Notes under the pieces: generated by a model
Told to the model about the DNA's origin: nothing
Database searches by the model: none
The model's input: only the letters and a program-made list of their open reading frames with translations
Position numbers and translations under genes: made by a program
Assembly: GCA_963716945.1 (NCBI GenBank)
Contig: OY970322.1
Location: 390,001 to 422,000, forward strand
DNA from: Candidatus Saccharimonadota bacterium
Lineage (GTDB): Bacteria; Patescibacteriota; Saccharimonadia; Saccharimonadales; UBA4665
Direction: 5' to 3'
Length of the DNA stretch: 32,000 bases
Shown here: positions 1 to 30,104 of the stretch, piece by piece
How positions within the stretch are numbered: the stretch's first letter is position 1
Layout: every line of letters begins with the position of its first letter

Positions 1-2646
1 GATAGCGGCTCCACCAGTAAGAACACCTTGACCTGGTCGGCGGTGACGGGCGCCACGGCTTACATAGTTTACGAGTCGACCAACGGCACGACCTGGTTTT
101 ATAACGAAGTCACTTCCGGCACGACCTCGATAGTTGATAACGGCACTAACTTTACCTGGACAAACTCGGGCACGCCGCCGAGTACCTCGACGACCGGCGG
201 TAACCTGACGGTTGGCGGTACGGTTCTGTTCCAAACCAAAGCCAACTCTACTACCGCTTTCCAAGTCCAAAACGCCGCCGGCAACAACTTCATCCAGGTA
301 GATACCAACGGTGCCAACCTTTATCTTGGTAACACCGGCATCGCCAGCACGATCCAGGTCGGCAACACCACCGGGGCCGTTGCCCAGACTATCGATATCG
401 GCAACAACGCCACCGCCAGCTCTTCGACAACCTTAGTCATCGGTTCGACTGTCGGTACCAGTCCGGTGACTGTCCAGTCCGGTACTTCCGGCACCACTTT
501 CACGCCGGCCGGTGGCAGCTCCAACACCGGCGTGCTGGTAAAACCGGTGTCTAACACCACTGCCGCCTTCCAAGTCCAAAACACCAGTAACGCCGCCGTC
601 CTGAACGTCGACGCGACTAACGGCACCACCACCCTGCAGGTGGCCACCGGCAACGACACGGCCACCCTTGGCGCCAACCTGGCCCCGACCAACTTCAGCA
701 CCGGCTGGACCGGCACCAACTGGACGCTCGCCAGCACCACTGCCGCCCACAACGCCCTGTCCGGCCACACCCAGGCCTTGTCGCCGACCACGCCCTTGGC
801 CACCACCTCCGGCCAGGTCTACCAGATCAGCTACACCATCACCAACCCGACTACCGCCGGCACCAGCCTGACGGTGGCCCTGGGCAGCACTACCATAGCC
901 TTCTACAACTTCGACGCTAACACGGCCGGCACCTACAGCTTCACCGACACCGTCATGGCGACCGCCCCCAGCAATAATGCCAACCTGACCTTCACGCCTG
1001 ATGCCTCCGGCCTGTTCACCGGCACCATATCGGCCGTTTCGGTCCAACTGGTGACCCAAAGCACCCACCCGGCTCTGGTAGTCGACAACGCTTCCGGCAA
1101 CCCCAACGTCCAGCTGCGGGCCAGTTCCGACACCCACAGCCTGCTCTTAGGCTTTGACGCCGGCGAATCCAACAGCAGCGGCACCAACAACACCGCCGTC
1201 GGTACCTATAGCTTGCAGGACAACGGCAGCGGTTCCTCCAACGTCGCCGTCGGTACCTTCGCTCTCCAGAATAACGCTTCCGGCAACGACAACAGCGCCT
1301 TGGGCTACGAGGCTCTCCAGTTCAACACTTCCGGCGGCCAGAACACGGCTATCGGCTACAATACTCTCAGCAGCAACACCACCGGCAGTTACAACGTGGC
1401 TGTCGGCAGCAACGGCCTGGCGTCCAACACCTTAGGCTACTCCAACACCGCCGTCGGCATAGCCACCTTGCAGAACAACACCACCGGCTCCGGCAACATA
1501 GCCCTGGGCAACAACACCTTGGAGAACAACACCACCGGCAACGGCAACATCGGCATCGGCGGCCTGGGCGATAACACTACCGGCAGTAACAACGTCGCTA
1601 TCGGCGGCCTGGGCAGCAACAATGGTTACTCCAACGTCGCTGTTGGTACCTTCAGCCTATACAACAGCACCGGCGTCAGCAACGACACAGCCATCGGTTA
1701 CCAGGCTTTGCAAAACGACGTCGGCGGCAGCTACAACGTCGGCCTGGGCTACGGCGCCAACGTGCTCAACGGCAGCCTGAACCTTAGCGGCGCCGACGCC
1801 ATCGGGGCCGGCACTCAAGTCGGTGCCAGCAATACCACTATCCTGGGCTACGGCCTTGCCAACGGCGCCAACCAGGCCGTCGGCATCGGCACGTCCTTCG
1901 CCCCCAACGAACTGACGGTCAGCCCGCAGACTTACGGCACCAACGGCACCGTAGGCAGCGGCACGACCATCACCCAGGGCAGCGGCTCCGGTACGGTTAC
2001 CGGCTCGGGAACGGCCTGGACTACCGGCATGGTCGGCGGTACCATCTACTACAGCGACGGCAGTACCGGCACGATCACGGCCGTAAGTTCGGGCACCAGC
2101 CTGACCAGCAGCAACACCACCGGCGGCTGGAGTTCGGCTACTTACAACATCGTCTGGGGCGGCTTCAACGTCAGCAACAGCGATACAGTGCTGCTGCAGC
2201 CGACTAGTAACTCTACTACGGCGTTTCAGATTAAGAACAACACCGGCGGTTTGCTGGTAGCGGCCGATACGACTAACATGACGCTGACCATAGACGGCCA
2301 CATCATCACCGGCAACGGCAATGGCGCTACGACCACGGCCACGCTTAACGGTAACGCCGGTACGGGCGGCAGCCCGAGCTGTACCGTCAGCGGTGACGAC
2401 ACCAGCGGTCAGATTACCCTCAAGACGGGCAGCACCAGCGGTTGGGCGGCCGGCATCCAGTGTACGATTAACTTCGGCACCAGCTACGCCAGCGCGCCGC
2501 ACCCGGTCCTGACCCCGGCCAGTAGCCAAGATGTCAGCGCCGTCAAACCGTACGTTACATCGGGCACGGGCAGTTTCACCGTCAGCTTCATCACCGCCGA
2601 TAACGCCCAGCACACTTACGTCTGGAATTACTTCAACGCCCAATAA
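1..2646 (+). CDS. Giant surface fibre protein, paralog A; only the 3' 881 codons are in the window (5' end lies upstream)
   Basis: Frame +1 is open from nt 1 (DSGSTSKNT precedes the track's TTG at 28). Stop is TAA at 2644-2646. Contains an FN3-like 'LTWSAVTGATAYIVYES' and a recurring module junction 'TTAFQVQN..G....VDT'. Also has a CBM/jelly-roll-like block and ~190 aa of 'NTA.G..AL..NT.G..N' repeats in YadA-head/Hep_Hag or phage tail-fibre style. The C-terminal ~115-aa domain ends TYVWNYFNAQ and is shared with three other ORFs. Confidence 0.9.
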   Translation, partial: DSGSTSKNTLTWSAVTGATAYIVYESTNGTTWFYNEVTSGTTSIVDNGTNFTWTNSGTPPSTSTTGGNLTVGGTVLFQTKANSTTAFQVQNAAGNNFIQVDTNGANLYLGNTGIASTIQVGNTTGAVAQTIDIGNNATASSSTTLVIGSTVGTSPVTVQSGTSGTTFTPAGGSSNTGVLVKPVSNTTAAFQVQNTSNAAVLNVDATNGTTTLQVATGNDTATLGANLAPTNFSTGWTGTNWTLASTTAAHNALSGHTQALSPTTPLATTSGQVYQISYTITNPTTAGTSLTVALGSTTIAFYNFDANTAGTYSFTDTVMATAPSNNANLTFTPDASGLFTGTISAVSVQLVTQSTHPALVVDNASGNPNVQLRASSDTHSLLLGFDAGESNSSGTNNTAVGTYSLQDNGSGSSNVAVGTFALQNNASGNDNSALGYEALQFNTSGGQNTAIGYNTLSSNTTGSYNVAVGSNGLASNTLGYSNTAVGIATLQNNTTGSGNIALGNNTLENNTTGNGNIGIGGLGDNTTGSNNVAIGGLGSNNGYSNVAVGTFSLYNSTGVSNDTAIGYQALQNDVGGSYNVGLGYGANVLNGSLNLSGADAIGAGTQVGASNTTILGYGLANGANQAVGIGTSFAPNELTVSPQTYGTNGTVGSGTTITQGSGSGTVTGSGTAWTTGMVGGTIYYSDGSTGTITAVSSGTSLTSSNTTGGWSSATYNIVWGGFNVSNSDTVLLQPTSNSTTAFQIKNNTGGLLVAADTTNMTLTIDGHIITGNGNGATTTATLNGNAGTGGSPSCTVSGDDTSGQITLKTGSTSGWAAGIQCTINFGTSYASAPHPVLTPASSQDVSAVKPYVTSGTGSFTVSFITADNAQHTYVWNYFNAQ
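647..1058 (+). repeat. 412-bp tract 100% identical to 21864-22275 in giant C
   Basis: Line-by-line comparison of the two stretches found no mismatch. The antisense track ORFs 668-871 and 21885-22088 translate identically. The tract encodes the CBM-like block GNDTATLGANLAPTNFSTGWTGTNW...ISAVSVQLVTQ. Confidence 0.95.
1651..2213 (+). repeat. 563-bp tract 100% identical to 22868-23430 in giant C, at the same 21217-nt offset
   Basis: Compared block by block (ttcagcctatacaacagcacc ... ccgactagtaactc). Identity ends at 2213/23430. Confidence 0.95.
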
Positions 2647-2728
2647 CCGTCTGCTAGCGCTTAAAACCGCTCTCCGCCGCTGCAAATCATAGCTTAGTAA
2701 GGGAGTGCTTGGTATAATCGTAAGCAAC

Positions 2729-3553
2729 ATGCGTAAACCGCGCCACTGGAGACTATTACCAACTGTAACCGGGCTGATCCTGATGGCGGTCAGCTTGAGT
2801 CCGGCTAGCGCCGCTTCGGCTAACATATCCCACTCTTATTCGGCAACTGGTAATATCCCAAACGGCACTATCGTCAGTTTGGACCCGCAGCACTCCGGCT
2901 ACGTCGAGCTGGCCAACACCTCCAACGACAGCCGGCTACTGGGAGTAGCGCTGCCCAGCGACCAATCACTATTAGCGGTTGACCCTAATAGCAGCAAGAC
3001 CCAAGTGGCTATCAGCGGTACTGTCGACACCCTGGTGAGTACGGTCAATGGCAATATTAAAGTCGGCGACCAGGTAAGCGTATCACCGTTTAGCGGGGTA
3101 GGTATGGAAGCGGCGCCTGGCAGCCGGACGATCGGCATCGCCCAAACGGCCTTCACATCTAGTACTAGCCAGGCCACGACTGAACGGGTGAAAGATACGT
3201 CCGGCACGAACCAAGAAGTAAAAGTCGGCTACATCCGGCTCACGATAGCCATTAGCAGCAAAAACGGCGGACCCGGCACCGGCTCTCAGGCCAACTTCTT
3301 ACAAAAGGTAGTCAAGTCATTAACTGGCCGCACCATTTCCACGATCCGCATATTGCTTAGCCTGGCGGTCGCTATTATCTCGTTGATTTCGTTGATCACA
3401 CTCATTTACGCCTCGATTTACGGCAGCATTATCTCGATCGGCCGCAACCCTTTGGCCCAAAGCGCCGTTTTCCGAACGCTGGCTTCGGTTATGAGCATGG
3501 CTTTCCTGACTACGGCCATCGCTTGCGTGACGATTTACTATCTGTTGCGTTAG
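2729..3553 (+). CDS. Membrane protein with N-terminal signal/anchor, beta-rich ectodomain module and a C-terminal two-helix hairpin with an IGRNPLA loop; paralog of 10196-11026
   Basis: The track ORF is 2705-3553 (GTG start). I prefer ATG 2729 (MRKPRHWRLL...). The paralog begins MRNMRKYF, and both genes share -10 box + 10 nt + ATGCGTAAA. The hydrophobic h-region ends in ASA. The ectodomain motif 'GNIKVGDQVSVSPFSGVGMEAAPGSRTIGIAQ' matches the paralog and giant C. Two C-terminal TM helices flank 'IGRNPLAQSAVFRTL'. Stop is TAG. Confidence 0.8.
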   Translation: MRKPRHWRLLPTVTGLILMAVSLSPASAASANISHSYSATGNIPNGTIVSLDPQHSGYVELANTSNDSRLLGVALPSDQSLLAVDPNSSKTQVAISGTVDTLVSTVNGNIKVGDQVSVSPFSGVGMEAAPGSRTIGIAQTAFTSSTSQATTERVKDTSGTNQEVKVGYIRLTIAISSKNGGPGTGSQANFLQKVVKSLTGRTISTIRILLSLAVAIISLISLITLIYASIYGSIISIGRNPLAQSAVFRTLASVMSMAFLTTAIACVTIYYLLR

Positions 3554-3629
3554 CCGGCTAAGACTGGTCCGCCTGCTGGTTACCGGCCGCCCCGCGTCCG
3601 GACCATGCTAATTATCAGTTCATTATTTC

Positions 3630-3658
3630 TTGGACTCCTGGTACAAGAGGGATACAAT
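3630..3658 (+). promoter_or_regulatory. Candidate sigma70-type promoter for giant B (TTGGAC-17 nt-TACAAT)
   Basis: TTGGAC at 3630-3635, a 17-nt spacer, and TACAAT at 3653-3658, inside the AT-rich gap 3554-3727. Sequence match only. Confidence 0.35.
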
Positions 3659-3727
3659 ATACTTACGGCTGATAATACCAAAATAGTATTTACAGGGCCC
3701 GGCCCCTAACATAAACACCACAAACAA

Positions 3728-6700
3728 ATGGCAGACCAAAACGAAAGCTTATCCCTTGTCTACGAAGGCTCCTCGGTCGACTCGAGCTTGGAGACGCAAA
3801 GCGAGCCCCAGTTTAAGGCTAACCCGCCGCCTGAATACGAACAGGCGCCCAGACGCCTGTCATCCAGACGCAACCGCCGCAAGCTGCTTATAGTCAATAT
3901 CATCATACTCCTCCTTATTATCATAATAGGGCTGGTCAGCTTTTTCCTCTCTTCCGGCCCCAGGGCCACTAACGCCTCAACCAACCACAAGCTGGTTAGT
4001 TATGCCGCCTCTTCCTTGCCGGTCCAGAACATTCAGCCCAACCAGGCGCTCCAGGTTAGCGAAGCCAACCAGCTGTCCATCAACGGCCAGGTAACTATCG
4101 GTAACACCCTGGTCTTAGCCCCGACCGCTACCCCGACTACCCCGGTTACCGGTCAGATATATTACAACCAGTCTGACAATACGCCTTATTACTACGACGG
4201 TACGCGGTTTGTCAGTTTGGCGTCAGGAGCGGGATTGCAGACTACGGCCCAGAATGCCCCACAGCAGTTCGTGGCCTCCATTGGCGGCAGCAGCGGCTCT
4301 ATCGGCATCGGCAGTGGGCTGGCTCTAAGTGGTGGCGAGCTGCTAGTGCGACTGCAGGCCGGTCCGGGCATAACGGTGAACGGTTCGACGGTCTCCAGTA
4401 GCGGGGTTATCAGCTTGACGGCCGGCAGCTCGAACGTGTTCATTACCCAGGACGGCAAGGGCAACTACACGGTCAGCGACCATATAGCCAACCTGATTAC
4501 CGGCGGCGGTACTACCGGCCAAATTGCGCTTTTCAGCGGCAGCCAAGCCGTTGGCGATTCGATACTGGGACAAGCCGGCGCCAGCCTGACCGTCGCCGGT
4601 TCCTTCGTTGTCCAAAGCGCGGCGTCAGCCGCCTCACTGGCGGTCGCCAACGCTATTTCGGGTGGCACGCTTAGCGTAGCCGGCGGCAAACTGGCGGTGG
4701 ACGGTTCTGGTAATCTGACCCTGCAATCGGGCAGCACGATTTATGCTAATAACCTGGTTCAAACTGACAGTACCCAGCCGGTATCGATTAACGCCGGTGC
4801 TAAGCAGCTTGAATTCACCGCCAACGGCATCAACTTCACGCTCCCTAGTTCCGGCGGATCGACGCAAGTAATCTGCACGACCGGTATCAGTTGCGCTTCC
4901 GGCGGCGGCCAGGCGATTCTGCTGGCACCCAATGACAGCGCTTCGCCGACGGCGCACCCAACCGCACAAACTAACACCGCCGGCGACTTACCGTCGATTT
5001 TTATCAATAACACCGGCGGGGCCAACCTGTTGGAGCTGCAAGGCGACGGCGCGGACACTTTTGTCGTCGGCCAAAGCGGTGACACGGTTATCGCCGGTAC
5101 GCTCGCGGTCCAATCCGCCAATAGCCTGAGCCTCGGTACACCGGGGCCGGCCGGCAATAACGGTTCGGTCAGTTTTGCTAATGCCGCTGGCTTACATACC
5201 GTGACCTTGCAGGCACCAGTGACTGACCCGGCCAGTGATTTGATCTTTACTCTGCCGGCCAGCGACGGTGCCTCGGGTAATTGTATTAAAACTGATGGTA
5301 ACGGCAATCTCAGCTTTGGTAGCTGTGCTAGCGGCAGCGGTGCCACGGCCATTGGAGCGATTGACTCTCAGTCTAAGTCGCTTAATGGTGGCGTTATAAG
5401 CGGAACTAACCTTTATTTACAGTCGGCTGACGCTAATTTCCCCGGCTTAATAACTACTGGTAGCCAGACTCTGGCCGGCGATAAGTCCTTTAACGGTGAT
5501 ATTACTCTGTCCGGCACCGGCACCGGCCTGAGCGTTACTAACTCGGTTACTATCGGCACTGGCCTGACTGTGGCTGCCGGAGGTTTGACTGTCAGTGCCG
5601 GCACGGTTACCTTCAGCGGGCTTAATACGGCGGGCATTGTTACTAATACGTCCGCTGGCGTACTGGGGACAGTTGCTATTATTGGAGTTGGTAACGGCGG
5701 CACCGGTGCAGGCAGCTTTACGTCCGACGGTATCTTGTATGGCAACTCCGGGGGTATTATCCAGGTTACCGGCGCGGCCGCTAGCTCTATACTGGCCACT
5801 AACGCCAGCGATTTGCCGGGCTTGACCCAGACCTTGCCGTCAGCTGTCCAAGGCAACATTACCGCTACTGGTGCTTTGGCCGCCGGTTCTATCGCTTCGA
5901 CGTTTGGTAGTATCTCGACAGCCAGTAATATCCAGACCACGGCAACGGTCCAGGGTACCACGGTTACGGCTACGGGTGCTTTGCAAGGCAACTCCCTCAG
6001 TGTCAATGGCGGCGTGTTTGCTGTTAATAATACTGGGGCCATTACGGCCGCGACAGGTATCAGTTCTTCTGGCACGATCACCTTTAGCGGCCTGGGCACG
6101 GGCATACTGCAAGCCAGCGCCGGCGTGATCGGCCTTTATGGCGGCGGCCTGGTAGCCGGCGTGAAGGACGAGGCCGGAACCAGCCGCGGCGGTACTATAA
6201 CCCTTAACAACGTCACGTTTGGGATCGGAGGGGCCGCCAGCACCCTTACGATCGACACCGCCGACGCCACGCATAACGGGCTAGTTACTAACGGCGTCCA
6301 AACTATTGCTGGAGCCAAGACGTTAAGCGCCAACTTGACGCTGCAAGCCAGCCCGACGGCCTTGACCATTAACGGGCCGCCCAGCGGTACCACGTCCCTG
6401 ATCCAGCTTGGCTCGGCGCTTGGCACCGGCGTCGGCAGCAACATTAACTCCAACGGTACTTTCATCGGCCTTGACGCGGCTAGCGGCAGCAGCGCCGATT
6501 TACTGAATTTTCAGGCTAATGGTGTCAGCGACCTCCGGGTCGACAGTTCGGGCAATGTTTTTACGGCCGGAAACGTTACTGCCAGCGGCAGCCTCGCCGT
6601 CGTGTCGTCCAGCGGAAACACGGTCTCGTTACTAGCACCAAGCGGACTGGCCGCGGCTTCGACACTGACTTTGCCCAGCACTAACTATGGCAGCGCCGGC

Positions 6701-9700
6701 GACTGTCTCAAGCTGGCTTCCGGCAGCAGCGGCAATAACGGCGTTATAGATTTCGAAAACTGTCTCGGGGAACCCGGCGGTCCGCCGACCGGAGCGGCCG
6801 TAATACTGAACGCCGACCCGGTGGGTGGAACCGCCGGCCAGCAGCTCCAAGCGGCCTTTAACATTCAAAGCGCCGCTTACACGACCGGTAACGTCATCGA
6901 GGAGGGGCCGAGCGTTGCCGGGACGGCAGCTAACCTCTTGCAATTAGAGAATAACAGCGGCGTACAGACCTCGGCTTTCTGCCCCAACGGCAGCGAACTG
7001 TTGCTTAACCAGGCACCGAATACCTTTTGTTCGACCGCGAACGGTACCAGCGGCACGCCGTACGCCATAACGATCGGGACTGGTTCTAGCGCCCTGGCTG
7101 GCATTAACTTCGGCGGCGACAGCCAGATTTATCGTTCGGCCGCCAACACCTTCACCTTTGGGTCGGCAGCTTCGAGTCAAACGCTCCAGATATCGGCTAA
7201 TACCACCAACGGCTCGCCGGGCGGCTCGCTGACAATCCAGGGCGGTGCCGCTACGGGCCTGGTCAGCGGCGGCAACATAGTCTTGCAGGTATCACCGCCG
7301 CCGACCGCCGGTACGATTAGAAACTTTATAACCGGCCTGCTAGGGGCCACCGACGTTGCCGAGGACGGTACTTACCTATGGTGGACTACTGGCAGTACCG
7401 TGGGCCGCGCGACCCTTAACGGAAGCAGTACGCCAACCCACATCATCCCGAACTATTTCACGCTTGAAACCAAGCTCAACTACCTCGCGAGCGACGGCAA
7501 TTTCGTTTATATCTCGACTGGAGGTCGTACTATCGACAGGTTCACCATTACCAAAAATAATACTATCCCCACGTTTAGCCAAGGCAGTAACTACTGGCAA
7601 AATTATATCTGTTTGAGCAACGGGACCGTCAGTACCAGTAACGCTTCTTGCCCTAACGGCGGCGGCGACAACCTGCAAGGCCTGGCCTATGATTCTAGCA
7701 ACAAAATCATGTACTGGGCGGACAGGAGTGAAATAGGCGACTACAACACGGTTACTCTGACAGCTACCAACAACTGGTTCGTCACGAGCGGTTTGAGCAC
7801 TACCGGCTGTGGCAGCAACGGTTCCATGAACTCCGTGGGGGTCGATTCTATCAACAACATGATTTACTGGTTCTCGACGACCTGTACTGATATCGGCCAG
7901 GCCAATCTGCCCTCGGGCAATGCCGCGCCTACCAGCATCACGCCGGCCTGGTTTTCGCTTGTCGGCCAGGCCCAGGGCTCCCCATCCAGCATCCAGGGCT
8001 TGACTAGTGATGGAACTAACCTGTACTGGTCTAACATCAACAAAGACAGCATCGGCGACGTCAACATAGCCAGTGTCGCGGCGAACATGGCCAACCCGTC
8101 GAATCCGATCCTGGCTAACAGTAACCTGATATCCAATATCGGCTCGGGTACCGGCAATGGACCGCAGGGCATAGCCGTCAGCCTCACGCCTGGTTACCTG
8201 TATTGGACCCAACCAGTCGGGTCGCCGGGTTACATAGGCCGCGCCCTGGTATTAGCCACCCAGCCCAATCCCGAGCAGACGGTCTTTCAGCTAAGTGGTA
8301 CCGACGGCTCGGCACAGTTTAAGGACGCCGTCGATACTACTTCTAGCTTCCAGGTGCAGGACGCTAACGGGGCCGCGGTCTTCAACGTCGATACTCTTGA
8401 TAACGTCAGTAGCCTGGCCGGGCAATTCACGGCTGCCGGCGGCGTAACCGCCAGCGGCCTAAGCACACCGGCGGCGCCCACGATTACGCCGAACGTCCTC
8501 AATACCTGCTTGAGTTCCTCGACTACTTATACCTACGAGATCAGCGCTATTAACAGTAAGGGCGGTTCGACACCGGCCTCGGCCTTAGGTAGCACGACTT
8601 CGGGCTGCTCGTCGCTTGATACTGCGGGCGATAACATCAGCATTACCTGGACGGCCGTGCCGGGCGCTTACGGCTACAATGTTTACAGGGTAAGCAGCCC
8701 GTACACGGCTGGTTTGATCGGAACCGTGCTTACGGCTGGCGGCAGCCTATCCCTTACCGACACTGGCAACACCACACCGGTTATTTCCGCTACTGCGCCG
8801 CCAGTCAGCGACACCTCCGGCCAGCTGGCCACTTCTGGTGGCGGTGGTCTTTTGATCCAGGACGCCAGCAATACCAGCATTTTCAACGTTACTGCCGGCA
8901 GTACCTTGGCCGGGCTGGTCGCCAATGGCGATTTTGAGAGCCGCGGAACCGGGGGCTGGTTGGTGAAAAGTACCTCGTCTACCTCCACCACAGCTCTCTC
9001 AGCCGTTAATACCCAGGCGTGGGAAGGCCTTTATTCCATGAAAATAGCGGCTTCGGCCCTGGCCAATGACGGTGCCTACTACACCACCTCGTCGCCTATG
9101 GTTAGTTCGACGCAGTACACCTTGAGTTTTTACGCTAGAACCGGAAGCGGCACTATCAGTGACTTGGACGCCGGATACGAAGTGCAGGCGACGGCCACCG
9201 GGACGGGCACGGTGACTTCTACGGATACTAACTGTACCTTGTCAGCTAACTCCGTAAGCACGACCTGGACCCGATACACCTGTACGTTCACAACCGGCAC
9301 TATAACCCAAAACGGCAGTACCACCAGCACGACCAATATCTATATTAATAAGACCGGCAGCTCGGCGGAAACGTTTTACGTCGACGCCGTGCAGCTCCAG
9401 ACTGGCGGTTCGGCGACGGCTTTCAACAGCGGCAATACCATACAGATTAATGGAACTGTCAACACGGCCGTCCTCTTCCAGAACGGCCTTGATTCCACGA
9501 CCGCCTTCCAGGTTCAGAACGCGGCCGGCACGAGCAAGGTATTTGACGTTGACACCTTAGACGGCCGAGTTGGCGTTGGCACCAATGCCCCGGGTAACTT
9601 ATTGAGTATCGGCGCGTTGACGACGGCAGCCGGTACTTACCAGATAGCTGTCACTACCGGTGGCTCGGCTAATAGTGGTATTGTCGTCCAAACGGTGCTC

Positions 9701-10162
9701 GGGCAGAGCGGGGGGAACGTTTTCCAGGCCCAAGACTCGACTGGCGCTGCCCTAGCTACTATAGATTACCAAGGTAATTTGACGGTCAAGGCGGCGACCA
9801 TTAACGGTACGCTAACGGTCAACGGCCATCTTATAACTGGGTCGGCAGCGCCCACGCTGCCTACCGCCCAGACCGCCGCCGGTAGTGCTAATGGCGGTAC
9901 TTGCAGTATCAGCGCCGGTAATGACACCTCGGGCACGATTAGCGTTACGACCGGCAGCGCCGGCGTCACTACGGGAGCGTGGTGCACTTTTACCATTAGT
10001 TTCACTACGGCGCCGCGACCGGTGGTATCGGGTACTACCCAGGCTAGCGCCGCACTCCAGCCATATATGAGCGCGACGCCTACCGCCTTTAGCTTTGGCA
10101 TAGCCGGCGGAACGCCCGGCACCAGTACCACTTACACCTTTAATTACTTCAATGCCCAATAG
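3728..10162 (+). CDS. Giant N-terminally anchored surface fibre protein, paralog B (2144 aa)
   Basis: ATG start and TAG stop, with no in-frame stop over 6.4 kb. Acidic/Pro-rich cytoplasmic N-tail, basic cluster RRNRRK, then TM helix LLIVNIIILLLIIIIGLVSFFL (about nt 3881-3955). Tail-fibre-like 'GQIYYNQSDNTPYYYDGTRFVSL'. Long G/S/T/A/N beta-helix-like tracts. Six YW-type propeller blades (about 7350-8250). FN3-like 'ISITWTAVPGAYGYNVYR' (about 8465-8780). CBM4_9-like 'NGDFESRGTGGW...YTLSFYAR...FYVDAVQLQ' (about 8905-9405). The C-terminal shared domain ends TYTFNYFNAQ. Confidence 0.93.
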   Translation: MADQNESLSLVYEGSSVDSSLETQSEPQFKANPPPEYEQAPRRLSSRRNRRKLLIVNIIILLLIIIIGLVSFFLSSGPRATNASTNHKLVSYAASSLPVQNIQPNQALQVSEANQLSINGQVTIGNTLVLAPTATPTTPVTGQIYYNQSDNTPYYYDGTRFVSLASGAGLQTTAQNAPQQFVASIGGSSGSIGIGSGLALSGGELLVRLQAGPGITVNGSTVSSSGVISLTAGSSNVFITQDGKGNYTVSDHIANLITGGGTTGQIALFSGSQAVGDSILGQAGASLTVAGSFVVQSAASAASLAVANAISGGTLSVAGGKLAVDGSGNLTLQSGSTIYANNLVQTDSTQPVSINAGAKQLEFTANGINFTLPSSGGSTQVICTTGISCASGGGQAILLAPNDSASPTAHPTAQTNTAGDLPSIFINNTGGANLLELQGDGADTFVVGQSGDTVIAGTLAVQSANSLSLGTPGPAGNNGSVSFANAAGLHTVTLQAPVTDPASDLIFTLPASDGASGNCIKTDGNGNLSFGSCASGSGATAIGAIDSQSKSLNGGVISGTNLYLQSADANFPGLITTGSQTLAGDKSFNGDITLSGTGTGLSVTNSVTIGTGLTVAAGGLTVSAGTVTFSGLNTAGIVTNTSAGVLGTVAIIGVGNGGTGAGSFTSDGILYGNSGGIIQVTGAAASSILATNASDLPGLTQTLPSAVQGNITATGALAAGSIASTFGSISTASNIQTTATVQGTTVTATGALQGNSLSVNGGVFAVNNTGAITAATGISSSGTITFSGLGTGILQASAGVIGLYGGGLVAGVKDEAGTSRGGTITLNNVTFGIGGAASTLTIDTADATHNGLVTNGVQTIAGAKTLSANLTLQASPTALTINGPPSGTTSLIQLGSALGTGVGSNINSNGTFIGLDAASGSSADLLNFQANGVSDLRVDSSGNVFTAGNVTASGSLAVVSSSGNTVSLLAPSGLAAASTLTLPSTNYGSAGDCLKLASGSSGNNGVIDFENCLGEPGGPPTGAAVILNADPVGGTAGQQLQAAFNIQSAAYTTGNVIEEGPSVAGTAANLLQLENNSGVQTSAFCPNGSELLLNQAPNTFCSTANGTSGTPYAITIGTGSSALAGINFGGDSQIYRSAANTFTFGSAASSQTLQISANTTNGSPGGSLTIQGGAATGLVSGGNIVLQVSPPPTAGTIRNFITGLLGATDVAEDGTYLWWTTGSTVGRATLNGSSTPTHIIPNYFTLETKLNYLASDGNFVYISTGGRTIDRFTITKNNTIPTFSQGSNYWQNYICLSNGTVSTSNASCPNGGGDNLQGLAYDSSNKIMYWADRSEIGDYNTVTLTATNNWFVTSGLSTTGCGSNGSMNSVGVDSINNMIYWFSTTCTDIGQANLPSGNAAPTSITPAWFSLVGQAQGSPSSIQGLTSDGTNLYWSNINKDSIGDVNIASVAANMANPSNPILANSNLISNIGSGTGNGPQGIAVSLTPGYLYWTQPVGSPGYIGRALVLATQPNPEQTVFQLSGTDGSAQFKDAVDTTSSFQVQDANGAAVFNVDTLDNVSSLAGQFTAAGGVTASGLSTPAAPTITPNVLNTCLSSSTTYTYEISAINSKGGSTPASALGSTTSGCSSLDTAGDNISITWTAVPGAYGYNVYRVSSPYTAGLIGTVLTAGGSLSLTDTGNTTPVISATAPPVSDTSGQLATSGGGGLLIQDASNTSIFNVTAGSTLAGLVANGDFESRGTGGWLVKSTSSTSTTALSAVNTQAWEGLYSMKIAASALANDGAYYTTSSPMVSSTQYTLSFYARTGSGTISDLDAGYEVQATATGTGTVTSTDTNCTLSANSVSTTWTRYTCTFTTGTITQNGSTTSTTNIYINKTGSSAETFYVDAVQLQTGGSATAFNSGNTIQINGTVNTAVLFQNGLDSTTAFQVQNAAGTSKVFDVDTLDGRVGVGTNAPGNLLSIGALTTAAGTYQIAVTTGGSANSGIVVQTVLGQSGGNVFQAQDSTGAALATIDYQGNLTVKAATINGTLTVNGHLITGSAAPTLPTAQTAAGSANGGTCSISAGNDTSGTISVTTGSAGVTTGAWCTFTISFTTAPRPVVSGTTQASAALQPYMSATPTAFSFGIAGGTPGTSTTYTFNYFNAQ

Positions 10163-10195
10163 GCAAATTAAGCTTAAGCAAAAAAGGCTATACTG

Positions 10196-11026
10196 ATGAG
10201 GAATATGCGTAAATACTTCAAATTCCTAGCCGGTCCCGCCAGCGTTCTGTTCCTGATTGGCTTAGCGGCTTCGGCGGCTGCCTCCGGCGTCCTAATCCAA
10301 AGCTACAATGCCGGCCCTTCGGTCCTGTCCGGCATGCTCGTCGAAACCGAAGCCCGCGACCAGTCTACCGTCGTTCCGCTGACTACCCAGGGCATCCGCG
10401 GTATGCTGGGGGTAGTCGTACCGGCCAACGACGCCGCCCTTGTCCTGTCGCCGCAATCCGCATCATCCCGCCAGGTCCTGGTGGCCGCCTCCGGCAATTA
10501 CGGCGTACTGGTTAGCAACCAGGACGGTTCGGTCAAATCAGGCGACTACCTGACCATGTCGTCGTTACCTGGTATCGCCATGAAAGCCGCCAGCGACCAG
10601 TCCGAGGTTATCGGCCGCGCCGGCGGTGATTTCGATGGTGTTAATAACACCCTATCGACGGTATCGCTCAAACTTGCCGCCGGCCGTTCGGCAAAAGTCT
10701 CCATCGGCCAGGTGCCAGTCAGTGTCCGACTCGGTCCGAACCCCCTCTACCAGAAAAGTAACTTGCCGGGATTTTTGAGCCGGGCGGCCAGCGACGTTTC
10801 TAATAAACCGGGCTCGATCCGGATTTACCTTAGTTCGGCCGTCTTACTGGCTACGCTTATCATCAGCGGCGTGATGTTTTATGGCAGCGTCCGCAGCAGC
10901 ATAACAGCCATCGGCCGCAACCCCCTGGCCAAGCGGGAAATCAGCCGTGACCTCGTCCAATCGGTTGCCGCCGGCCTGGTTATCTTCTTGGCTGGCATCC
11001 TGGCGGCCTACCTCATATTAATTTAG
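10196..11026 (+). CDS. Membrane protein, paralog of 2729-3553 (signal peptide, beta-rich ectodomain, C-terminal hairpin with IGRNPLA loop)
   Basis: ATG at 10196, with an alternative ATG at 10205 giving MRKYFKF. Signal-like FLIGLAASAAAS. 'GSVKSGDYLTMSSLPGIAMKAASDQSEVIGRAG' module. The C-terminal helices flank 'IGRNPLAKREISRDL'. Stop is TAG. It lies 33 nt behind giant B, as its paralog lies behind giant A. Confidence 0.85.
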   Translation: MRNMRKYFKFLAGPASVLFLIGLAASAAASGVLIQSYNAGPSVLSGMLVETEARDQSTVVPLTTQGIRGMLGVVVPANDAALVLSPQSASSRQVLVAASGNYGVLVSNQDGSVKSGDYLTMSSLPGIAMKAASDQSEVIGRAGGDFDGVNNTLSTVSLKLAAGRSAKVSIGQVPVSVRLGPNPLYQKSNLPGFLSRAASDVSNKPGSIRIYLSSAVLLATLIISGVMFYGSVRSSITAIGRNPLAKREISRDLVQSVAAGLVIFLAGILAAYLILI

Positions 11027-11039
11027 ATCCGGGGCAAGA

Positions 11040-12023
11040 TTAATCGACGACGAAATAATCGAAACCAAAAGACGTGCCGGCCGGCGGGGCGGTCGAGTCA
11101 CAGACGGTGAAGTTGCTAGTGGTACGGTTGACATAATAACTTAAGCCGCCGGCACTAGAACCGACCGGCGTCAATAGGACATGCGGCGTGGCGTTGTACT
11201 TGGCTGTGAAATCAACGGTTATGAAACAGCCGGCCGCCGGGCCGCTGCCGGTATTGATAGTGATCGAACCGCTGGTATCGCTGCCCGACACGCTGGAAGT
11301 GCCGCCATTACCGAGGGCGCTGCCGTTGGTCCGGCCGGGCGTGCCGCCGCCGACGGTAATGTGGTGGGTCAGTACCAGGTCGCCGTTTAGCTGCAAACTG
11401 CCGGTAGTAAGTTGTGGTGCTGACAACGTTCCGCCGAAAGTTCCGCTGCCGCTAACCTGTAAGCTCTTAGCTATAGTGACCGCGCCTTGGAGGCTGGTGG
11501 TACCGGCGACGGCTAGGTTTTTGCTGACTTGGGCCTGGCCGAACTGGGCGCTGCCGGCAACCGTAACATCGTTTAGGCCCAAAGTGCCGCCGATTTGCAA
11601 GCCGCCGGCGACCTGCAAGTCTTGTCGCATCAGTACTTTACCGGCGAAAATGGCGCTGCTCTGGACATTCAGCACCTGGCTCGAATTACCGACCGTAGCG
11701 TCACTGTCGGCCAGTTGCTGGAGAGTGCTTTGGGATAAACTTTGGGACGAAACGCTGGAGCTGCCTGAATTATGCCTGCTATCGTTGTAGGCGACGAGAA
11801 CGATCCCGGCCGCCACGGCCAATAATAATATGAACAGCAGGAAATAAATATTAACCCGCTTGGCTATGCCGCGGCGCTTCTTCTTGGGCGGCGGCGAGAC
11901 CGAAGGCCCGGGCTCCAGGGTGGTTTCGGGCGGCGCCGGTTTGCCGTTGAGTTCGGGCGGGGGACTCTCCAGCGAAGCTTCCTGGGGGTCTGCTGCTAAC
12001 GGTTCAGATCGGTCCGAGTCCAT
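11040..12023 (-). CDS. Miniature member (327 aa) of the fibre family: cytoplasmic Pro-rich tail, TM anchor, short beta-helix stalk and the shared C-terminal domain
   Basis: ATG at 12023 and TAA at 11040-11042. KKKRRGIAKR followed by TM VNIYFLLFILLLAVAAGIVLVAY, the same topology as giant B. Stalk repeats 'LQVAGGLQIGGTLGLNDVTVAGSAQFG' resemble the pre-terminal stalk of giant C. The C-terminus 'SGSDTSGSITINTGS...YNATPHVLLTP...FGFDYFVVD' aligns with the ends of A, B and C. Confidence 0.85.
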   Translation of the reverse strand: MDSDRSEPLAADPQEASLESPPPELNGKPAPPETTLEPGPSVSPPPKKKRRGIAKRVNIYFLLFILLLAVAAGIVLVAYNDSRHNSGSSSVSSQSLSQSTLQQLADSDATVGNSSQVLNVQSSAIFAGKVLMRQDLQVAGGLQIGGTLGLNDVTVAGSAQFGQAQVSKNLAVAGTTSLQGAVTIAKSLQVSGSGTFGGTLSAPQLTTGSLQLNGDLVLTHHITVGGGTPGRTNGSALGNGGTSSVSGSDTSGSITINTGSGPAAGCFITVDFTAKYNATPHVLLTPVGSSAGGLSYYVNRTTSNFTVCDSTAPPAGTSFGFDYFVVD

Positions 12024-12075
12024 ATGTTATTTATACAGTATAATCGAGGAAAAGCGTAAACGGTATAAACAACCC
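12024..12075. promoter_or_regulatory. 52-bp divergent control region with mirror-image -10 boxes, each 6 nt from a start codon
   Basis: Minus-strand TATAAA (plus-strand 12030-12035) lies 6 nt before the ATG at 12023. Plus-strand TATAAA at 12064-12069 lies 6 nt before the ATG at 12076. There is an additional TATAAT at 12039-12044. No SD on either side. Confidence 0.45.
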
Positions 12076-12768
12076 ATGGCCCGACCGGAATACCAGTACA
12101 ATCATTCTGACCATATCAGGCACCGCCGGCGCTACCGGCGGCGTTTCTTCGTGGCCGCCGTCTTTTTTATAGCCGCCATGGTCGCCGCCGGCGCGCTGGC
12201 TTACAATCTGTATAACCTTAGCCGCGTCACAACTAAGCCGGTCGGAGTTACTTATCATCAGACCATCGGCGGTCTTCAGGTCACGAAGTCGGCCTACTTC
12301 GAGTTCAGCGATACCCAGGCCTGGTCTTACGCGCCGGGCGACAGCACTGCCACCGAACTGACGTACTTATTATATGAAGGCGGCCTGCCAGTCCACTCGC
12401 TGACGGTTTATATTAACCAAACGCCTCTCAACAGCGACCTGGCGGTGACACGCGTCCTGCCGGTCCAAATCAAAAACGGCAACGCTTTGATGCTCGAAGG
12501 CGACATCTCCCAGCCCTGCAGCAGCTTGTACGGACCGTCCGATCCGAAGCGCATCAAACAGGTTTCGCTCGAAGGCACCGACTTCTTATGCGTGCCCGAT
12601 TCGCCGCAATTCAGCACGGTGGTCGGGCAGGTCGGCGGCAATTACGACCTCAGCCTCAAGCGCGCCGACGGCCGGACCGCCAATTACATAATTATTTACC
12701 ATAATCTGTCAGTGGACCCGGACCCTTCGCCTTTTGTTAGGATTATGAGGACTTTCCAGGCTTTGTAG
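12076..12768 (+). CDS. Single-pass membrane protein (230 aa), N-in, with a ~180-aa external domain of unknown function
   Basis: The track ORF starts at 11860, but its first 72 codons are antisense to the 5' end of 11040-12023. ATG 12076 (MARPEYQYNHSDHIRHRRRYRRR + TM FFVAAVFFIAAMVAAGALAY) is the plausible start. Stop is TAG. Confidence 0.75.
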   Translation: MARPEYQYNHSDHIRHRRRYRRRFFVAAVFFIAAMVAAGALAYNLYNLSRVTTKPVGVTYHQTIGGLQVTKSAYFEFSDTQAWSYAPGDSTATELTYLLYEGGLPVHSLTVYINQTPLNSDLAVTRVLPVQIKNGNALMLEGDISQPCSSLYGPSDPKRIKQVSLEGTDFLCVPDSPQFSTVVGQVGGNYDLSLKRADGRTANYIIIYHNLSVDPDPSPFVRIMRTFQAL

Positions 12769-12773
12769 CGCCG

Positions 12774-12794
12774 GCAGCCGGCCGGCCGGGCTGC
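12774..12794 (+). terminator. GC-rich hairpin (GCAGCC...GGCTGC) just after the 12768 stop, abutting the next -10 box
   Basis: gcagcc at 12774-12779 pairs with ggctgc at 12789-12794, followed by TATAATT. The U-tract is weak, so this is low confidence. Confidence 0.3.
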
Positions 12795-12805
12795 TATAAT
12801 TAAGC

Positions 12806-13558
12806 GTGATGAAGCGCTTAAGGCTGGGAGTTATATTAGGGCTGGTCGTGCTGCTCGGCACGCCGGCGGCTTTTGCCGCCCAGTCCAGTTCGCCCAATTA
12901 CCAGGTCAACGAAGTCCAGTTCGATTCCGGCGGCCTGCTGAATGCCAGTTCGCCCAACTACCAGGCCCAGCAAAGCGCCGGCTCGAACGTCGCCGGCTCG
13001 GCCTGCGGCACTCTCTACTGTGCCGACAACGGCTTCTTGACCGGCAGCGACCCGTTTCTGCAAATGGTCGTCAACCCGGCCACAGTCAACCTGGGTACTC
13101 TAAGCTCAACCGGCACTGCTACAGGGTACGCGACCTTTAGTATCCGGGCCTACCTGGACAGCGGCTACATCATAGTCAGCATGAACAACCCGCCCACCGA
13201 TAGCGAAGGCTCAACCCTGAGCGCCTTGTCCAGCCCGACGGCTTCCAGCGTCGGCACCGAGCAGTTCGGTATTAACTTAGTCCTCAACTCCACCGGTTGT
13301 GCCAATCCGGCCCCGGCCAATTACGGAGCTAACCCGTCGCTGGTACCCAGCAGCACCTTCGCCAACGGCATAGCTGCCCCCGGCTATAATACCTGCGGGT
13401 TATTTAAGTACCACAAGGGCGACACCATAGCCGAGAGCAACGGCAAGGGCTGGGGCGAAACCGATTACACCATTTCCTACATGGCAAATATTAATCCCGC
13501 CAGCAAAGCCGGCGTTTACAGCATGACTCAGGACCTGGTCGCCGTCGCTACTTATTAA
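12806..13558 (+). CDS. Secreted beta-rich subunit-like protein S0 (250 aa), first gene of the putative fibre module
   Basis: GTG at 12806 or ATG at 12809. An extended -10 (TGCTATAAT, 12792-12800) lies just upstream. Signal peptide LGLVVLLGTPAAFA|AQ. Duplicated 'SSPNYQ' motif. 'GTEQFGINLVLN' motif. C-terminus 'AGVYSMTQDLVAVATY-stop' ends in an aromatic residue like S1-S3. Confidence 0.85.
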   Translation: MMKRLRLGVILGLVVLLGTPAAFAAQSSSPNYQVNEVQFDSGGLLNASSPNYQAQQSAGSNVAGSACGTLYCADNGFLTGSDPFLQMVVNPATVNLGTLSSTGTATGYATFSIRAYLDSGYIIVSMNNPPTDSEGSTLSALSSPTASSVGTEQFGINLVLNSTGCANPAPANYGANPSLVPSSTFANGIAAPGYNTCGLFKYHKGDTIAESNGKGWGETDYTISYMANINPASKAGVYSMTQDLVAVATY

Positions 13559-13658
13559 CTAATTATTAAATTGATTCTTAGTCTTGCTAATGCTAGTCTA
13601 GTATTGTAAAGAGCCTCGTGAGGGCACATTAACTGATACGAAATAAAGAGTGCGGCGG

Positions 13659-14972
13659 ATGCGGCAACATTATATAAACATACTGGCTCAAACACGCAGA
13701 GGACTTCTGCTGCTGTCCGCCTGTTTGGTAGTCGCCGTCGGCCTGACTCCGATTATTAACGCCGGCAACGCCTCCGCCGCCCAGGTTAGCCAGCGTTCGC
13801 TGACTATCGGCAGCGGTTTGCCCAGCGCCTCAACCACTTATAACTTCAGTTTCGTACCTAATACCACCGCGGCTATCCAGGGCCTGAAATTCCAGGCCTG
13901 TACCGCGGCGATCGGTACTTGTACGGCGCCAACCGGTTTAAACTTTTCCAGCGCTGTGTTCAGTACCCTAACCGGAACTTGGACCACTGCCACGGCTTTC
14001 GCGGCTGATGCTACCGGCGCTAACGACTGTACCGCCAGTGCCAGCGTCCTCTGTGCCAAGCGTACGCAAGCTACCGCCGAGACGGGCGCTGCTGTCCGCG
14101 GATTGACATTTACGACCATCACCAACCCCAGCGGCGCCAGCTGTGCCACTGTCAACTGTACGTTCTTCGTGCGTATGACAACTTATAGTACCAATACCTA
14201 TACGGTGGTCAGCACCGTCGACACCGGCACCGTAGCCAGCTCAACTATTCAAAGCCTGACTGTTAATGCCACGATTCAAGAGCAGCTAACTTTCTGCATC
14301 GGCGCCACCACGATTGATGACTCCAACACCACTACGCCGCCGGTTTGTAGCAGTATTAGCGGTACTTCCTTGAGCCTTGGCACGCTGACATCCGCCGATA
14401 CTTCGGTGTCGCCGGTCTCGGTCGGCAATGGCGGCGACGGCAATAACGGCATCGCCGAACTTAGTACCAATGCCACGAACGGCGCCACGGTAACTTATGA
14501 CGCCATCCAGCAAGCCGGCACCAACCACAAGGGCACTCTAAGGGTAGCCGGCGCCACCTGCAACGCCAGCGCCGGCATTACCAACGACCAGTGCATCAAC
14601 GCTATCGGCACCACCCAGGCCACGATTACTGCCGGCACCGAAGCCTACGGTATGACGGTGGCCGCCGTCAACTGCAAAGCCACCACGGCCTACGCCTGCA
14701 GCTTCACCGGCGGCACCTACCACTTAATACGCGATACGCAGTACGACGGTACCGGCGGCAACACCTACCCGACCGACACCAACCTGGTCAGCGGTACCAC
14801 CAACGCCGGCTACGCCTGGGACGAGACCGGCACGCCCGATACGATAGCCACTGCCAGCACTGTCGTCGACAAGGAAGCCCTGATCCTAAAATTCGCCGCC
14901 ACCCCTAACATAGTCACGCCGGCCGGCACCTACACCGCCCAGGCCGACTTCGTCGCCACGCCGACATTCTAA
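13659..14972 (+). CDS. Secreted beta-rich subunit-like protein S1 (about 437 aa), tandem paralog of S2
   Basis: The track start is GTG 13650. ATG 13659 has AAAGAG 8 nt upstream. Signal peptide ends ...NAGNASA|AQVSQRSLTIGS. Cys-rich (QACT..GTCTAPTGL, SCATVNCTFF). 'EAYGMTVAAVN' motif. C-terminus 'AGTYTAQADFVATPTF-stop'. Confidence 0.88.
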   Translation: MRQHYINILAQTRRGLLLLSACLVVAVGLTPIINAGNASAAQVSQRSLTIGSGLPSASTTYNFSFVPNTTAAIQGLKFQACTAAIGTCTAPTGLNFSSAVFSTLTGTWTTATAFAADATGANDCTASASVLCAKRTQATAETGAAVRGLTFTTITNPSGASCATVNCTFFVRMTTYSTNTYTVVSTVDTGTVASSTIQSLTVNATIQEQLTFCIGATTIDDSNTTTPPVCSSISGTSLSLGTLTSADTSVSPVSVGNGGDGNNGIAELSTNATNGATVTYDAIQQAGTNHKGTLRVAGATCNASAGITNDQCINAIGTTQATITAGTEAYGMTVAAVNCKATTAYACSFTGGTYHLIRDTQYDGTGGNTYPTDTNLVSGTTNAGYAWDETGTPDTIATASTVVDKEALILKFAATPNIVTPAGTYTAQADFVATPTF

Positions 14973-16428: not shown

Positions 16429-16435
16429 CCGGCCT

Positions 16436-17482: not shown

Positions 17483-17524
17483 AAATACTTTATCTCACTA
17501 ATATAAAATGATACACTTACGCTG

Positions 17525-18547: not shown

Positions 18548-18550
18548 GAC

Positions 18551-19441: not shown

Positions 19442-19777
19442 GCCAACCGCCCAAAAACGTTCCAATCCTTGTGGATAACTTATAATAAATACGTGCATTA
19501 AATAATTTTTCATAATTATAACAACGATAAGAGGCAGTCTAATATCACAAATCTAGTAGTGATAATGGATTATTACAGATAAAATATTCAAGTTGGTATA
19601 TAATTTACAACATTAAAAATTAAAACTCATATTATTTATTACAATAATGTTTGAGTATATTTATTATTCGCCAAGGGGTTGAATAGAGGCGGCAAAGGGT
19701 TGATACTTAATAACAGGGTAAAACATGAAGCGCCACCGGTGCCTCCCCTAAAAAAAACTACAAAAAACTAAAACAAA
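19442..19777 (+). promoter_or_regulatory. 336-bp strongly AT-rich intergenic island upstream of giant C
   Basis: Long A/T runs contrast with the GC-rich flanks. Contains the DnaA-box 12-mer (19470-19481), TATAAT at 19482-19487, a TGG-TATATAAT extended -10-like element (19594-19604) and a GGGTTGA direct repeat (about 19676 and 19697). Also has the palindrome CACCGGTG and the A/C-rich leader aaaaaaaactacaaaaaactaaaacaaaATG. Confidence 0.5.
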
Positions 19778-26433: not shown

Positions 26434-26522
26434 GAAGTGGGGACGGGTTTATCCACTCGAAAGCCCAGATTTAACCAATGTATTAGATGCCAAACCGTAG
26501 CAAGTTTGACATCAATAAATGC

Positions 26523-26551
26523 TTGACCGCCTCTGTTAAGTTTGGTAAGAT
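26523..26551 (+). promoter_or_regulatory. Candidate rRNA promoter TTGACC-17 nt-TAAGAT, with a second TTGACA at 26506-26511
   Basis: Hexamers and spacing were read directly. It lies about 370 nt upstream of the 23S 5' end. The leader downstream holds several hairpins, for example GGATCATCT/AGATGATCC at about 26713-26745. Confidence 0.4.
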
Positions 26552-26855: not shown

Positions 26856-26877
26856 ACACCAATAACCAGTCAATTGC
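26856..26877 (+). other. 5' arm of the 23S processing stem; pairs with 30145-30166
   Basis: acaccaataaccagtcaattgc is complementary to gcaattggctggttattggtgt, with 22 bp and one A/G position (an A-G mismatch at RNA level). Outer arms aagacaaacg and cgtttgtctt extend the helix. This is the typical RNase III-type bracket around a 23S. Confidence 0.8.

Positions 26878-26920: not shown

Positions 26921-30104
<3,184 letters not shown>

Follow-up and report, generated by a model that had tools for sequence, protein, structure and literature searches.

In this work we analyzed a 32,000-nucleotide stretch of a Candidatus Saccharimonadota genome (contig OY970322.1, positions 390,001 to 422,000; the window), in which two genes for giant tail-fibre-like surface proteins, termed A and C, share a 1.57-kb module where perfectly identical tracts alternate with heavily diverged sequence. 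We propose, with a probability of about 0.8, that this patchwork results from recurrent ectopic gene conversion between two old paralogous modules, in which the domain-coding ends are homogenised and the right boundary is fixed at a module junction. A preliminary inspection, made from the letters of the window alone (the sequence-only reading), had suggested recent recombination between the two genes. This suggestion is borne out by synonymous sites, which show no difference at all within the identical tracts (pS of 0) and are at or near saturation in the adjoining homologous flanks and in positions 1057-1278 (pS of 0.71-0.77).

A shared module made of identical and diverged tracts

Gene A runs out of the window at its left end, frame 1 being open from the first base, and is represented by its 3' part (1-2646, + strand, 881 codons). 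Gene C (19778-25786, + strand) codes for a protein of 2002 residues with an N-terminal hydrophobic anchor and is located directly downstream of the gene for PamR and upstream of the 23S rRNA gene. The shared block covers 647-2213 in A and 21864-23430 in C, both on the + strand like all of its parts described below. As already noted by the sequence-only reading, the two copies are collinear and free of indels, the offset staying at 21217 nt throughout.

Four tracts of the block are strictly identical. Tract 1 (647-1058, 412 bp; C 21864-22275) codes for a domain resembling carbohydrate-binding modules (CBM), a beta-sandwich corresponding to residues 216-353 of A, and tract 4 (1650-2213, 564 bp; C 22867-23430) for the last repeats and a small domain (SPQTYG...YNIVWGGF...LLQPTSNS). 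Between them are found tract 2 (1280-1349, 70 bp; C 22497-22566) and tract 3 (1435-1497, 63 bp; C 22652-22714), together with shorter identical runs of 21, 16 and 15 bp. The longest tract has 564 bp and not the 563 bp initially given. All 169 mismatches fall in positions 1059-1649 (C 22276-22866), where they affect 28.6% of the sites; the divergence is thus indeed confined, as had been stated, to a zone of 17-residue (51-nt) solenoid repeats. The tract borders are abrupt, since identity drops from 100% to about 55% within one codon. At the protein level, 128 of the 198 residues of the repeat zone are identical, so that the 40-50% divergence first estimated has to be lowered to 35%, a value of about 53% being reached in the left third only.

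The homology between A and C does not end with the block. Diverged but collinear sequence extends beyond it on both sides, as seen by protein alignment and by blastn (505-2240 versus 21725-23457). Because of this continuation, the extra segment of about 1.9 kb that is specific to C (23513-25405, + strand), located between the junction motif described below and a C-terminal domain of shared type and containing an internal repeat spaced by 306 nt, starts about 80 nt past the identity border. The initial view that identity stops exactly where C acquires its insert therefore has to be abandoned.

The block is framed by two copies of a motif, '..VLxxP...xAFQ(V/I)QN..DT.N', which both genes have immediately 5' of the block and again where it ends. 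Further copies occur elsewhere in A and in B, the third giant gene of the window. The left copy, detected by motif scan (A 523-645, + strand, VLVKP..TTAAFQVQN..LNVDAT..; C about 21743-21862), shows saturated synonymous divergence between A and C. The right identity border sits within the right copy (A 2179-2295, + strand; C about 23396-23512), which reads VLLQPTSNS/TTAFQIKNN.., the slash indicating the border. In two other lineages, strains X and Y, a repeat likewise has its boundary here.

We also observed that the exact 12-mer CCGGCAACGACA, which codes for part of the (T/S)GND phase of the repeat, has only four copies in the window (647-658, 1280-1291 and those starting at 21864 and 22497), each of them at the first base of an identical tract. 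It thus marks the start of tracts 1 and 2 in both genes, a placement that may be a coincidence.

Identical tracts lie within a saturated background

The proportions of synonymous (pS) and nonsynonymous (pN) differences were estimated by the method of Nei and Gojobori. Over the 1109 nt of the identical tracts A and C do not differ at a single position, which corresponds to a pS of 0 over about 284 synonymous sites; the absence of synonymous differences reported by the sequence-only reading is thus confirmed. Outside the tracts, pS reaches 0.77 in positions 1057-1278, a saturated value, 0.73 in the homologous flank upstream of the block (residues 150-215 of A versus 631-694 of C) and 0.71 in the downstream flank (residues 739-765 of A versus 1219-1245 of C). 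The comparison of identical tracts with such saturated surroundings indicates that the paralogs are old and that the identical tracts are recent overlays. Lower values of 0.46 in positions 1351-1434 and 0.42 in positions 1498-1650 suggest that older or patchy events could also have taken place.

Permutation tests support this interpretation. When the 456 codons capable of synonymous change were shuffled 100,000 times, no shuffle gave a run as long as either of the two observed ones, of 183 and 133 identical codons (maximum 132; P<1e-5). Likewise, the runs of 70 and 63 nt were not matched in 20,000 shuffles of the nucleotides of the repeat zone alone (P<5e-5). On these sequence data, only recent recombination between paralogs 21 kb apart fits the divergence pattern. 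Given an upper bound of about 3/284 on pS within the tracts and a strain-to-strain pS near 0.45-0.5, the last events could be placed within roughly the last 2% of the time since the lineages split.

The same border is found in other lineages

Two other lineages were available for comparison, namely strain X (contigs L029, L030 and L032), whose PamR is 84% identical to that of the window, and strain Y (contigs L040, L041, L042 and L020), with 77% identity in the product of the open reading frame (ORF) that starts at 2705 in the window. In both strains, contigs terminate at the position homologous to 2213/2214 with an overhang equal to the overlap of the assembler: 30 nt for L042 (Logan), 55 nt for L041 (Joint Genome Institute, JGI), 141 nt for L040 (MEGAHIT, k141) and 141 nt for L032 (JGI). 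An overhang that depends in this way on k denotes a repeat with two different continuations rather than a boundary between conserved and variable sequence between strains.

The heads of L040, L041 and L042 recur without mismatch, over 141, 55 and 30 nt, in contig L020 from the sample of strain Y. Past the border, this contig enters a different C-terminal module (ASAFQIKDNLG...YYWVIE, followed by the stop) and then a sequence 91% identical to window positions 26488-27185, just upstream of the 23S rRNA gene, that is to say at the position of C. From this continuation to the C locus, it appears that the A/C pairing and its right boundary are present in strain Y too. Moreover, the 141 nt preceding the border form an exact repeat within each of the three genomes, the full partner copies being unseen in X and Y, and yet they are only 60-82% identical between genomes, while the 433 nt following the border are 85-88% identical. 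Exact repetition within genomes combined with strong divergence between genomes points to concerted evolution by recurrent conversion. The sequence-only reading had evoked a standing mechanism serving either variation or homogenisation. The recurrence of the border in two lineages, together with the pilin-like genes described below, supports the idea of a standing mechanism. Of the two terms, the data show the second, homogenisation within a genome, and they do not show a diversifying cassette mechanism.

Other strains provided additional observations on these genes. In strain X, the ortholog of C (L029, 11232-15605) shares with C only the first 289 residues (83% identity), the rest being unrelated and made of B-like CBM modules. 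The locus downstream of PamR thus appears as a hypervariable gene body on a conserved N-terminal anchor. In strain W, contigs from three assemblies (L044, L045 and L047) terminate within the C ortholog, not at the A/C border but at another, internal repeat. Between the MEGAHIT and the Logan contig the break is displaced by exactly 111 nt (141-30), a shift indicative of another exact repeat, which begins at a 'GSGSYIQNQS' motif that is found close to the N-terminus as well. Finally, in the more distant strain Z, the giant downstream of the homolog of ORF 2705 differs between two samples by one tandem repeat unit of 129 nt (L033 versus L034, about 17835-18160), leading to proteins of 2767 and 2810 residues, and the giants of this strain display B-like, A-like and block modules in yet another order.

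Direction of transfer and rate of evolution

To which of the two genes the tract sequence originally belongs can be approached by comparison with strains X and Y. Between A and its ortholog in strain X, pS is 0.45 inside tract 4 and 0.44 in the adjacent C-terminal domain, and the tracts compared with the A-like sequence of strain Y give a pS of 0.25-0.45. The tract sequence thus stands at ortholog-level pS from the A-type sequences of both strains, and in this respect it resembles A-type sequence, with C as the apparent recipient. In two diverged segments, A is also closer than C to strain Y (pS of 0.36 versus 0.66 in positions 1057-1278, and of 0.35 versus 0.64 in positions 1351-1434). We therefore tentatively suggest, from these sequence comparisons, that transfer could have proceeded from A to C. 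At the amino-acid level, comparison with the distant homologs P0001 and P0002 gave differences too slight to settle the polarity.

Protein divergence between lineages is very high in the block, with a pN of 0.27-0.41 and a pN/pS ratio near 1 for the CBM-like domain, compared with a pN of 0.09 in the N-terminal part of A and of 0.035 in the C-terminal domain of this protein. Homogenisation therefore affects the segments that evolve fastest. Either diversifying selection acting on a binding module or a relaxed constraint could account for this fast divergence.

Proposed mechanism and alternative explanations

On this basis, A and C are best explained as old paralogous genes for giant tail-fibre-like surface proteins that share a 1.57-kb module delimited by copies of the '..VLxxP...xAFQ(V/I)QN..DT.N' motif. 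Four segments of this module would recently have been made identical by non-reciprocal homologous recombination between the two loci, that is to say by ectopic gene conversion, most likely through a RecA-type repair or strand-invasion event copying one copy onto the other, with C as the probable recipient. Homologous recombination and natural transformation have been documented experimentally in Saccharibacteria (PMC10633639). The process would be recurrent, so that the two ends of the module, which code for domains, stay the same in any one genome but change rapidly from one lineage to another. Its right boundary would be fixed after LLQPTSNS, and the left and middle parts of the repeat array would largely escape, except for patches of 15-70 bp. 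The likely outcome would be that both fibres show the same current version of a rapidly evolving module, probably involved in ligand or host binding.

Several points weigh against this proposal. Only one genome supplies both copies in full, the base-perfect identity of the tract interiors relies on a single assembly, and the partner repeats of strains X and Y are only partly visible. In the more distant strain Z, two giants encoded within 20 kb of each other share no identical tract. The polarity is reversed in positions 1498-1650, where C is closer than A to strain Y (pS of 0.33 versus 0.52), and L020 may be a chimeric join across the repeat, which makes the polarity drawn from strain Y tentative. 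Furthermore, the flanks outside the tracts, which are 55-60% identical at the nucleotide level, are too diverged for strand invasion, so that each event needs a prior similarity inside the tract, which has to be assumed; a start from such similarity would be consistent with repeated events. No recombination genes are visible in the window.

An alternative that we consider unlikely is a single copy event of 1.57 kb, followed by overwriting of the centre of one copy by a third donor, either another member of the family or DNA from another strain. The arms of 412 and 564 bp would then have served as homology, and the tracts of 70 and 63 bp would be unreplaced islands. In favor of this scenario, the identical arms are long enough for homologous recombination in naturally transformable bacteria such as Saccharibacteria (PMC10633639), the family is highly modular, as illustrated by P0001, P0002 and the giants of strain Z, and strain X has a wholly different body of C. 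However, the saturated pS of the centre matches that of the outside flanks (0.77 versus 0.71-0.75), and a centre as diverged as these flanks is most simply the original paralogous sequence. No third copy is found in the window, where off-diagonal repeat matches reach only 66-70%. In addition, the border kept in strains X and Y and the segments of intermediate divergence speak for repeated events rather than for one.

One would also wonder whether the identity of the tracts was created by assembly or polishing, through collapse, bubble-popping or mis-mapped polishing reads. Both full copies come from one assembly only, assemblers of metagenomes merge near-identical repeats, and no protein identical to C as called is on record. 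Nevertheless, such an artefact is very improbable with regard to the Logan data, an independent k=31 assembly of run ERR11523672 that contains three contigs from this organism. L031 covers window positions 2184-13553 with 100% identity, and its end at 2184 (2213-29) lies exactly 30 nt (k-1) inside the right border of tract 4. L028 covers 16403-20880, again with 100% identity, and L043, which starts at 23908, was placed by gene position only and not aligned to the window. Of the six contig ends, four carry a 30-mer with exactly two copies in the window, and each of these four marks the place where an exact repeat stops, namely A/C tract 4, two tracts of the pilin-like paralogs and a repeat internal to C. 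Branching of the read graph thus coincides with the loss of identity in the window, at 2213/2214 as at the three other repeat ends. The same border also breaks contigs in four other assemblies from two other lineages, with the k-dependent overhangs described above. A collapse of merely similar sequence, which is very unlikely, would not produce a drop from 100% to about 55% identity within one codon. Lastly, the source contig has 1.1 Mb, so that the repeats are spanned. The concern of an assembly collapse, raised with the first observation of the tracts, is thus largely answered. As to the remaining ends, the 30-mer at the end of L028 (20851-20880) is unique within the window, and its partner repeat, if any, would be located in another part of the genome, perhaps within a further member of the family.

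Scarcely credible is a programmed variation, either by a diversity-generating retroelement (DGR) or another targeted mutagenesis of the repeat zone in a very recent duplicate, or by cassette switching of the pilE/pilS or vlsE type, for although divergence is limited to a surface-exposed repeat array between identical arms, genomes of the Candidate Phyla Radiation (CPR) abound in DGRs and CCGGCAACGACA stands at the start of two tracts, none of the 12 substitution classes is missing from the mismatches, of which C<->T and A<->G are the most frequent, 39 codons have synonymous differences only, neither a reverse transcriptase nor a recombinase was detected among the window ORFs, both partners are long ORFs in direct orientation and not silent cassettes, and the flanks outside the block are equally diverged. 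A DGR or adenine-directed mutagenesis was thus rejected, the mismatch spectrum not being adenine-specific. Cassette-type antigenic variation was discarded as well, C being a complete ORF of 2002 residues with its own start and A being open over at least 881 codons with a conserved C-terminal domain; no partial copies occur elsewhere in the window. Shuffling of repeat units in a shifted register was also considered as a source of the diverged zone and rejected on the basis of the 66-70% identity of the off-diagonal matches.

Returning to recurrent conversion between A and C, a more ambitious and in our opinion doubtful extension would be a dedicated module-exchange system, in which the '..LLQPTSNS/xxAFQ(V/I)QN' motifs act as fixed recombination boundaries and a fast-changing host-binding module, made of the CBM-like and distal domains, is copied as a unit among several fibre genes. 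If this were true, an episymbiont could re-target all its fibres at once when the surface glycans of its host change, and we would be dealing with a CPR-specific means of switching host range rather than with incidental gene conversion.

Architecture of the giant proteins

The best homolog of A is a protein from a Candidatus Saccharimonadales metagenome-assembled genome (54% identity), and homologs bear names such as 'tail fiber domain'. Searches of A and C against Pfam, NCBIfam, PDB sequences and PHROG assigned no family, apart from matches of A to phage tail-spike and structural PHROGs that are confined to the repeat zone. In Pfam, neither A nor C gave a match at E<=0.01, nor did the repeat zone at E<=10. 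The zone was first described as Hep_Hag-like, a label that does not hold, as no Hep_Hag match appears even at this permissive threshold and the 17-residue repeat merely resembles the pattern. A Hep_Hag/YadA-like trimeric autotransporter adhesin was rejected for the same reason, with no match to PF05658 and with hydrophobic anchors at the N-terminus instead, such segments being present in B and C. PF05658 or PF13884 is present in a few distant homologs.

The AlphaFold2 model of the block has a mean predicted local distance difference test score (pLDDT) of 55. It displays a beta-sandwich at block residues 23-152 (about residues 222-351 of A) with a pLDDT of 70-86, whose position makes tract 1 (residues 216-353) coincide with the CBM-like domain. 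Foldseek matched the domain of tract 1 to CBM6/22/4/16/29 folds (probability 1.0, TM score 0.4-0.62, E about 2e-3). No Pfam match was obtained for this domain in A or C, CBM_4_9 being found only in B. In the repeat zone, strands recur with a 17-residue period, in agreement with a solenoid of moderate confidence. The distal domain and the end of the repeats are modelled with low confidence (pLDDT<50), the domain borders being poorly modelled in this region. The shared module would thus be composed of a CBM-like beta-sandwich, an array of 17-residue solenoid repeats and a small distal domain.

The family is strongly modular, since P0001, P0002 and the giants of strain Z join A-, B- and C-like parts in different orders. 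The block protein searched against public genomes and metagenomes gave only distant matches to the repeat zone (26-47%), from many phyla. Look-ups for exact products found neither C nor ORF 10196 on record. The hypothesis that the conserved C-terminal domain of about 120 residues of the giants could be of Pam-pilin type, which would make these proteins tip adhesins, was rejected on the basis of an hhalign probability of 0.1%. The locus of P0081 was also set aside, showing neither a pam nor a CPR context.

A second patchwork in the pilin-like genes

Two tandem pilin-like paralogs (13650-14972 and 15109-16428, both + strand) form a second conversion patchwork in the window, made of exact tracts of 60-130 bp and diverged patches, and Logan contigs end at the ends of the exact repeats of the second gene. 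Over their first 180 nt, the paralogs are only 35% identical, versus 83% for the orthologs, which makes the pair old. In downstream windows, on the contrary, the paralogs are 98-100% identical where the orthologs show 79-91% identity. The homogenised windows differ between this genome and that of strain X. Judging from these comparisons, the pilin-like pair is an independent, textbook case of concerted evolution.

The Pam pilus locus and neighbouring features

The region between A and C contains the gene for PamR, a pilus-anchoring RbmA-like protein (18551-19441, + strand; NF058578, 370 bits for a cut-off of 300), and a gene for a protein with a Pam pilin C-terminal domain (16436-17482, + strand; NF058581, E=1.3e-42). 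The Pam pilus has been described in 2026 in the Saccharimonadia parasite Ca. Mycosynbacter amalyticus, in a study that also reports the consistent co-localisation of a 'tail fibre-like protein' with the Pam operon (10.64898/2026.03.03.709456). PamR, a Pam pilin-domain protein and, alongside them, a tail-fibre-like protein are all found here, and the best explanation is that A and C bracket a Pam pilus operon in a CPR bacterium of Saccharimonadia type.

The 23S and 5S rRNA genes carried by the window indicate cellular DNA, and the contig of 1,099,440 bp that bears the exact PamR protein is most likely a complete CPR chromosome. The 23S rRNA match (26923-30104) has 3182 nt, compared with 2925 nt for the model, so that insertions are likely; the 5S gene follows at 30340-30454. 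Since no 16S gene is found upstream of the 23S gene, the 16S gene appears unlinked. ORFs listed over the 23S region are probably spurious.

Gene B (3728-10162; interval 3550-10173), which codes for a giant of 2144 residues, has no counterpart at the syntenic loci of strains X and Y, in which the 3' end of A and the homologs of ORFs 2705 and 10196 lie next to one another. In the window, ORFs 2705-3553 and 10196-11026 flank B and look like paralogs, so that B may be a lineage-specific insertion or duplication. The products of both ORFs have an N-terminus resembling a signal sequence and, in their C-terminal part, which is hydrophobic, the motif IGRNPLA; for one homolog, P0296, JGI gives the name 'type IV secretory pathway VirB2 component (pilin)'.

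Significance and comparison with known systems

CPR bacteria, including Saccharibacteria, live attached to host bacteria, and how they recognise their hosts is largely unknown. The pattern reported here marks the CBM-like and distal domains as candidate specificity determinants, and indicates that intragenomic recombination shapes these parts of fibres encoded next to the Pam operon. The direct repeats of 412 and 564 bp, 21.2 kb apart, are moreover a potential substrate for unequal crossing-over, which would join A to C in frame, with loss or amplification of B and the whole pam operon. From a practical point of view, exact repeats of this kind systematically break short-read assemblies at predictable junctions.

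A parallel can be drawn with the babA, babB and sabA genes of Helicobacter pylori, full-length adhesin paralogs at separate loci that swap segments and yield mosaic genes with sharp borders. As in that system, A and C would be engaged in a non-reciprocal exchange between full-length surface-protein paralogs at separate loci. However, the H. pylori variants arise within the host and switch a binding phenotype, whereas only a fixed state is seen here, in a genome of CPR episymbiont type; the partners are also fibre proteins of 2000 residues, and the converted part is an internal module, not the 5' or 3' end of the gene.

Another comparison concerns tufA/tufB and the rRNA operons, in which copies within a genome are more alike than orthologs because of recurrent, RecA-dependent conversion with defined boundaries. 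The A/C tracts likewise are more alike within a genome than between genomes. On the other hand, those are conserved housekeeping genes homogenised over their full length, while here it is the fastest-evolving segments that are homogenised and the middle of the module that escapes.

Segmental conversion of surface-exposed segments, giving mosaic tracts, is well known for pilE/pilS of Neisseria, vlsE of Borrelia, tprK of Treponema and MgPa of Mycoplasma genitalium. These systems rely on silent truncated donors and one expression site and produce diversity, whereas A and C are two long ORFs and the result is identity. As no silent cassettes are involved, the present case is not one of cassette-type antigenic variation. 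A resemblance also exists with phage tail fibres, whose interchangeable modules have conserved junction sequences, the repeat zone matching tail-spike and structural PHROGs. Unlike tail-fibre exchange, the A/C exchange involves two genes of one genome at a chromosomal locus beside the Pam operon and the 23S and 5S rRNA genes, and no phage genes were found in the window.

The Giant1-5 genes of Apilactobacillus kunkeei, which show extreme heterogeneity of the synonymous substitution rate, short intragenic recombination tracts and near-identity of some subtypes, are similarly clustered genes for very large extracellular proteins (PMC12863079). In A. kunkeei, exchange was mainly inferred to take place between strains and genera, at positional homologs, in contrast to the two paralogs of one genome considered here (PMC12863079). 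A full-text literature search found no paper treating gene conversion in Saccharibacteria, the only two in which both terms occur being concerned with other subjects. Conversion among paralogous surface-protein genes is in itself a textbook process, of which the A/C locus is a new example.

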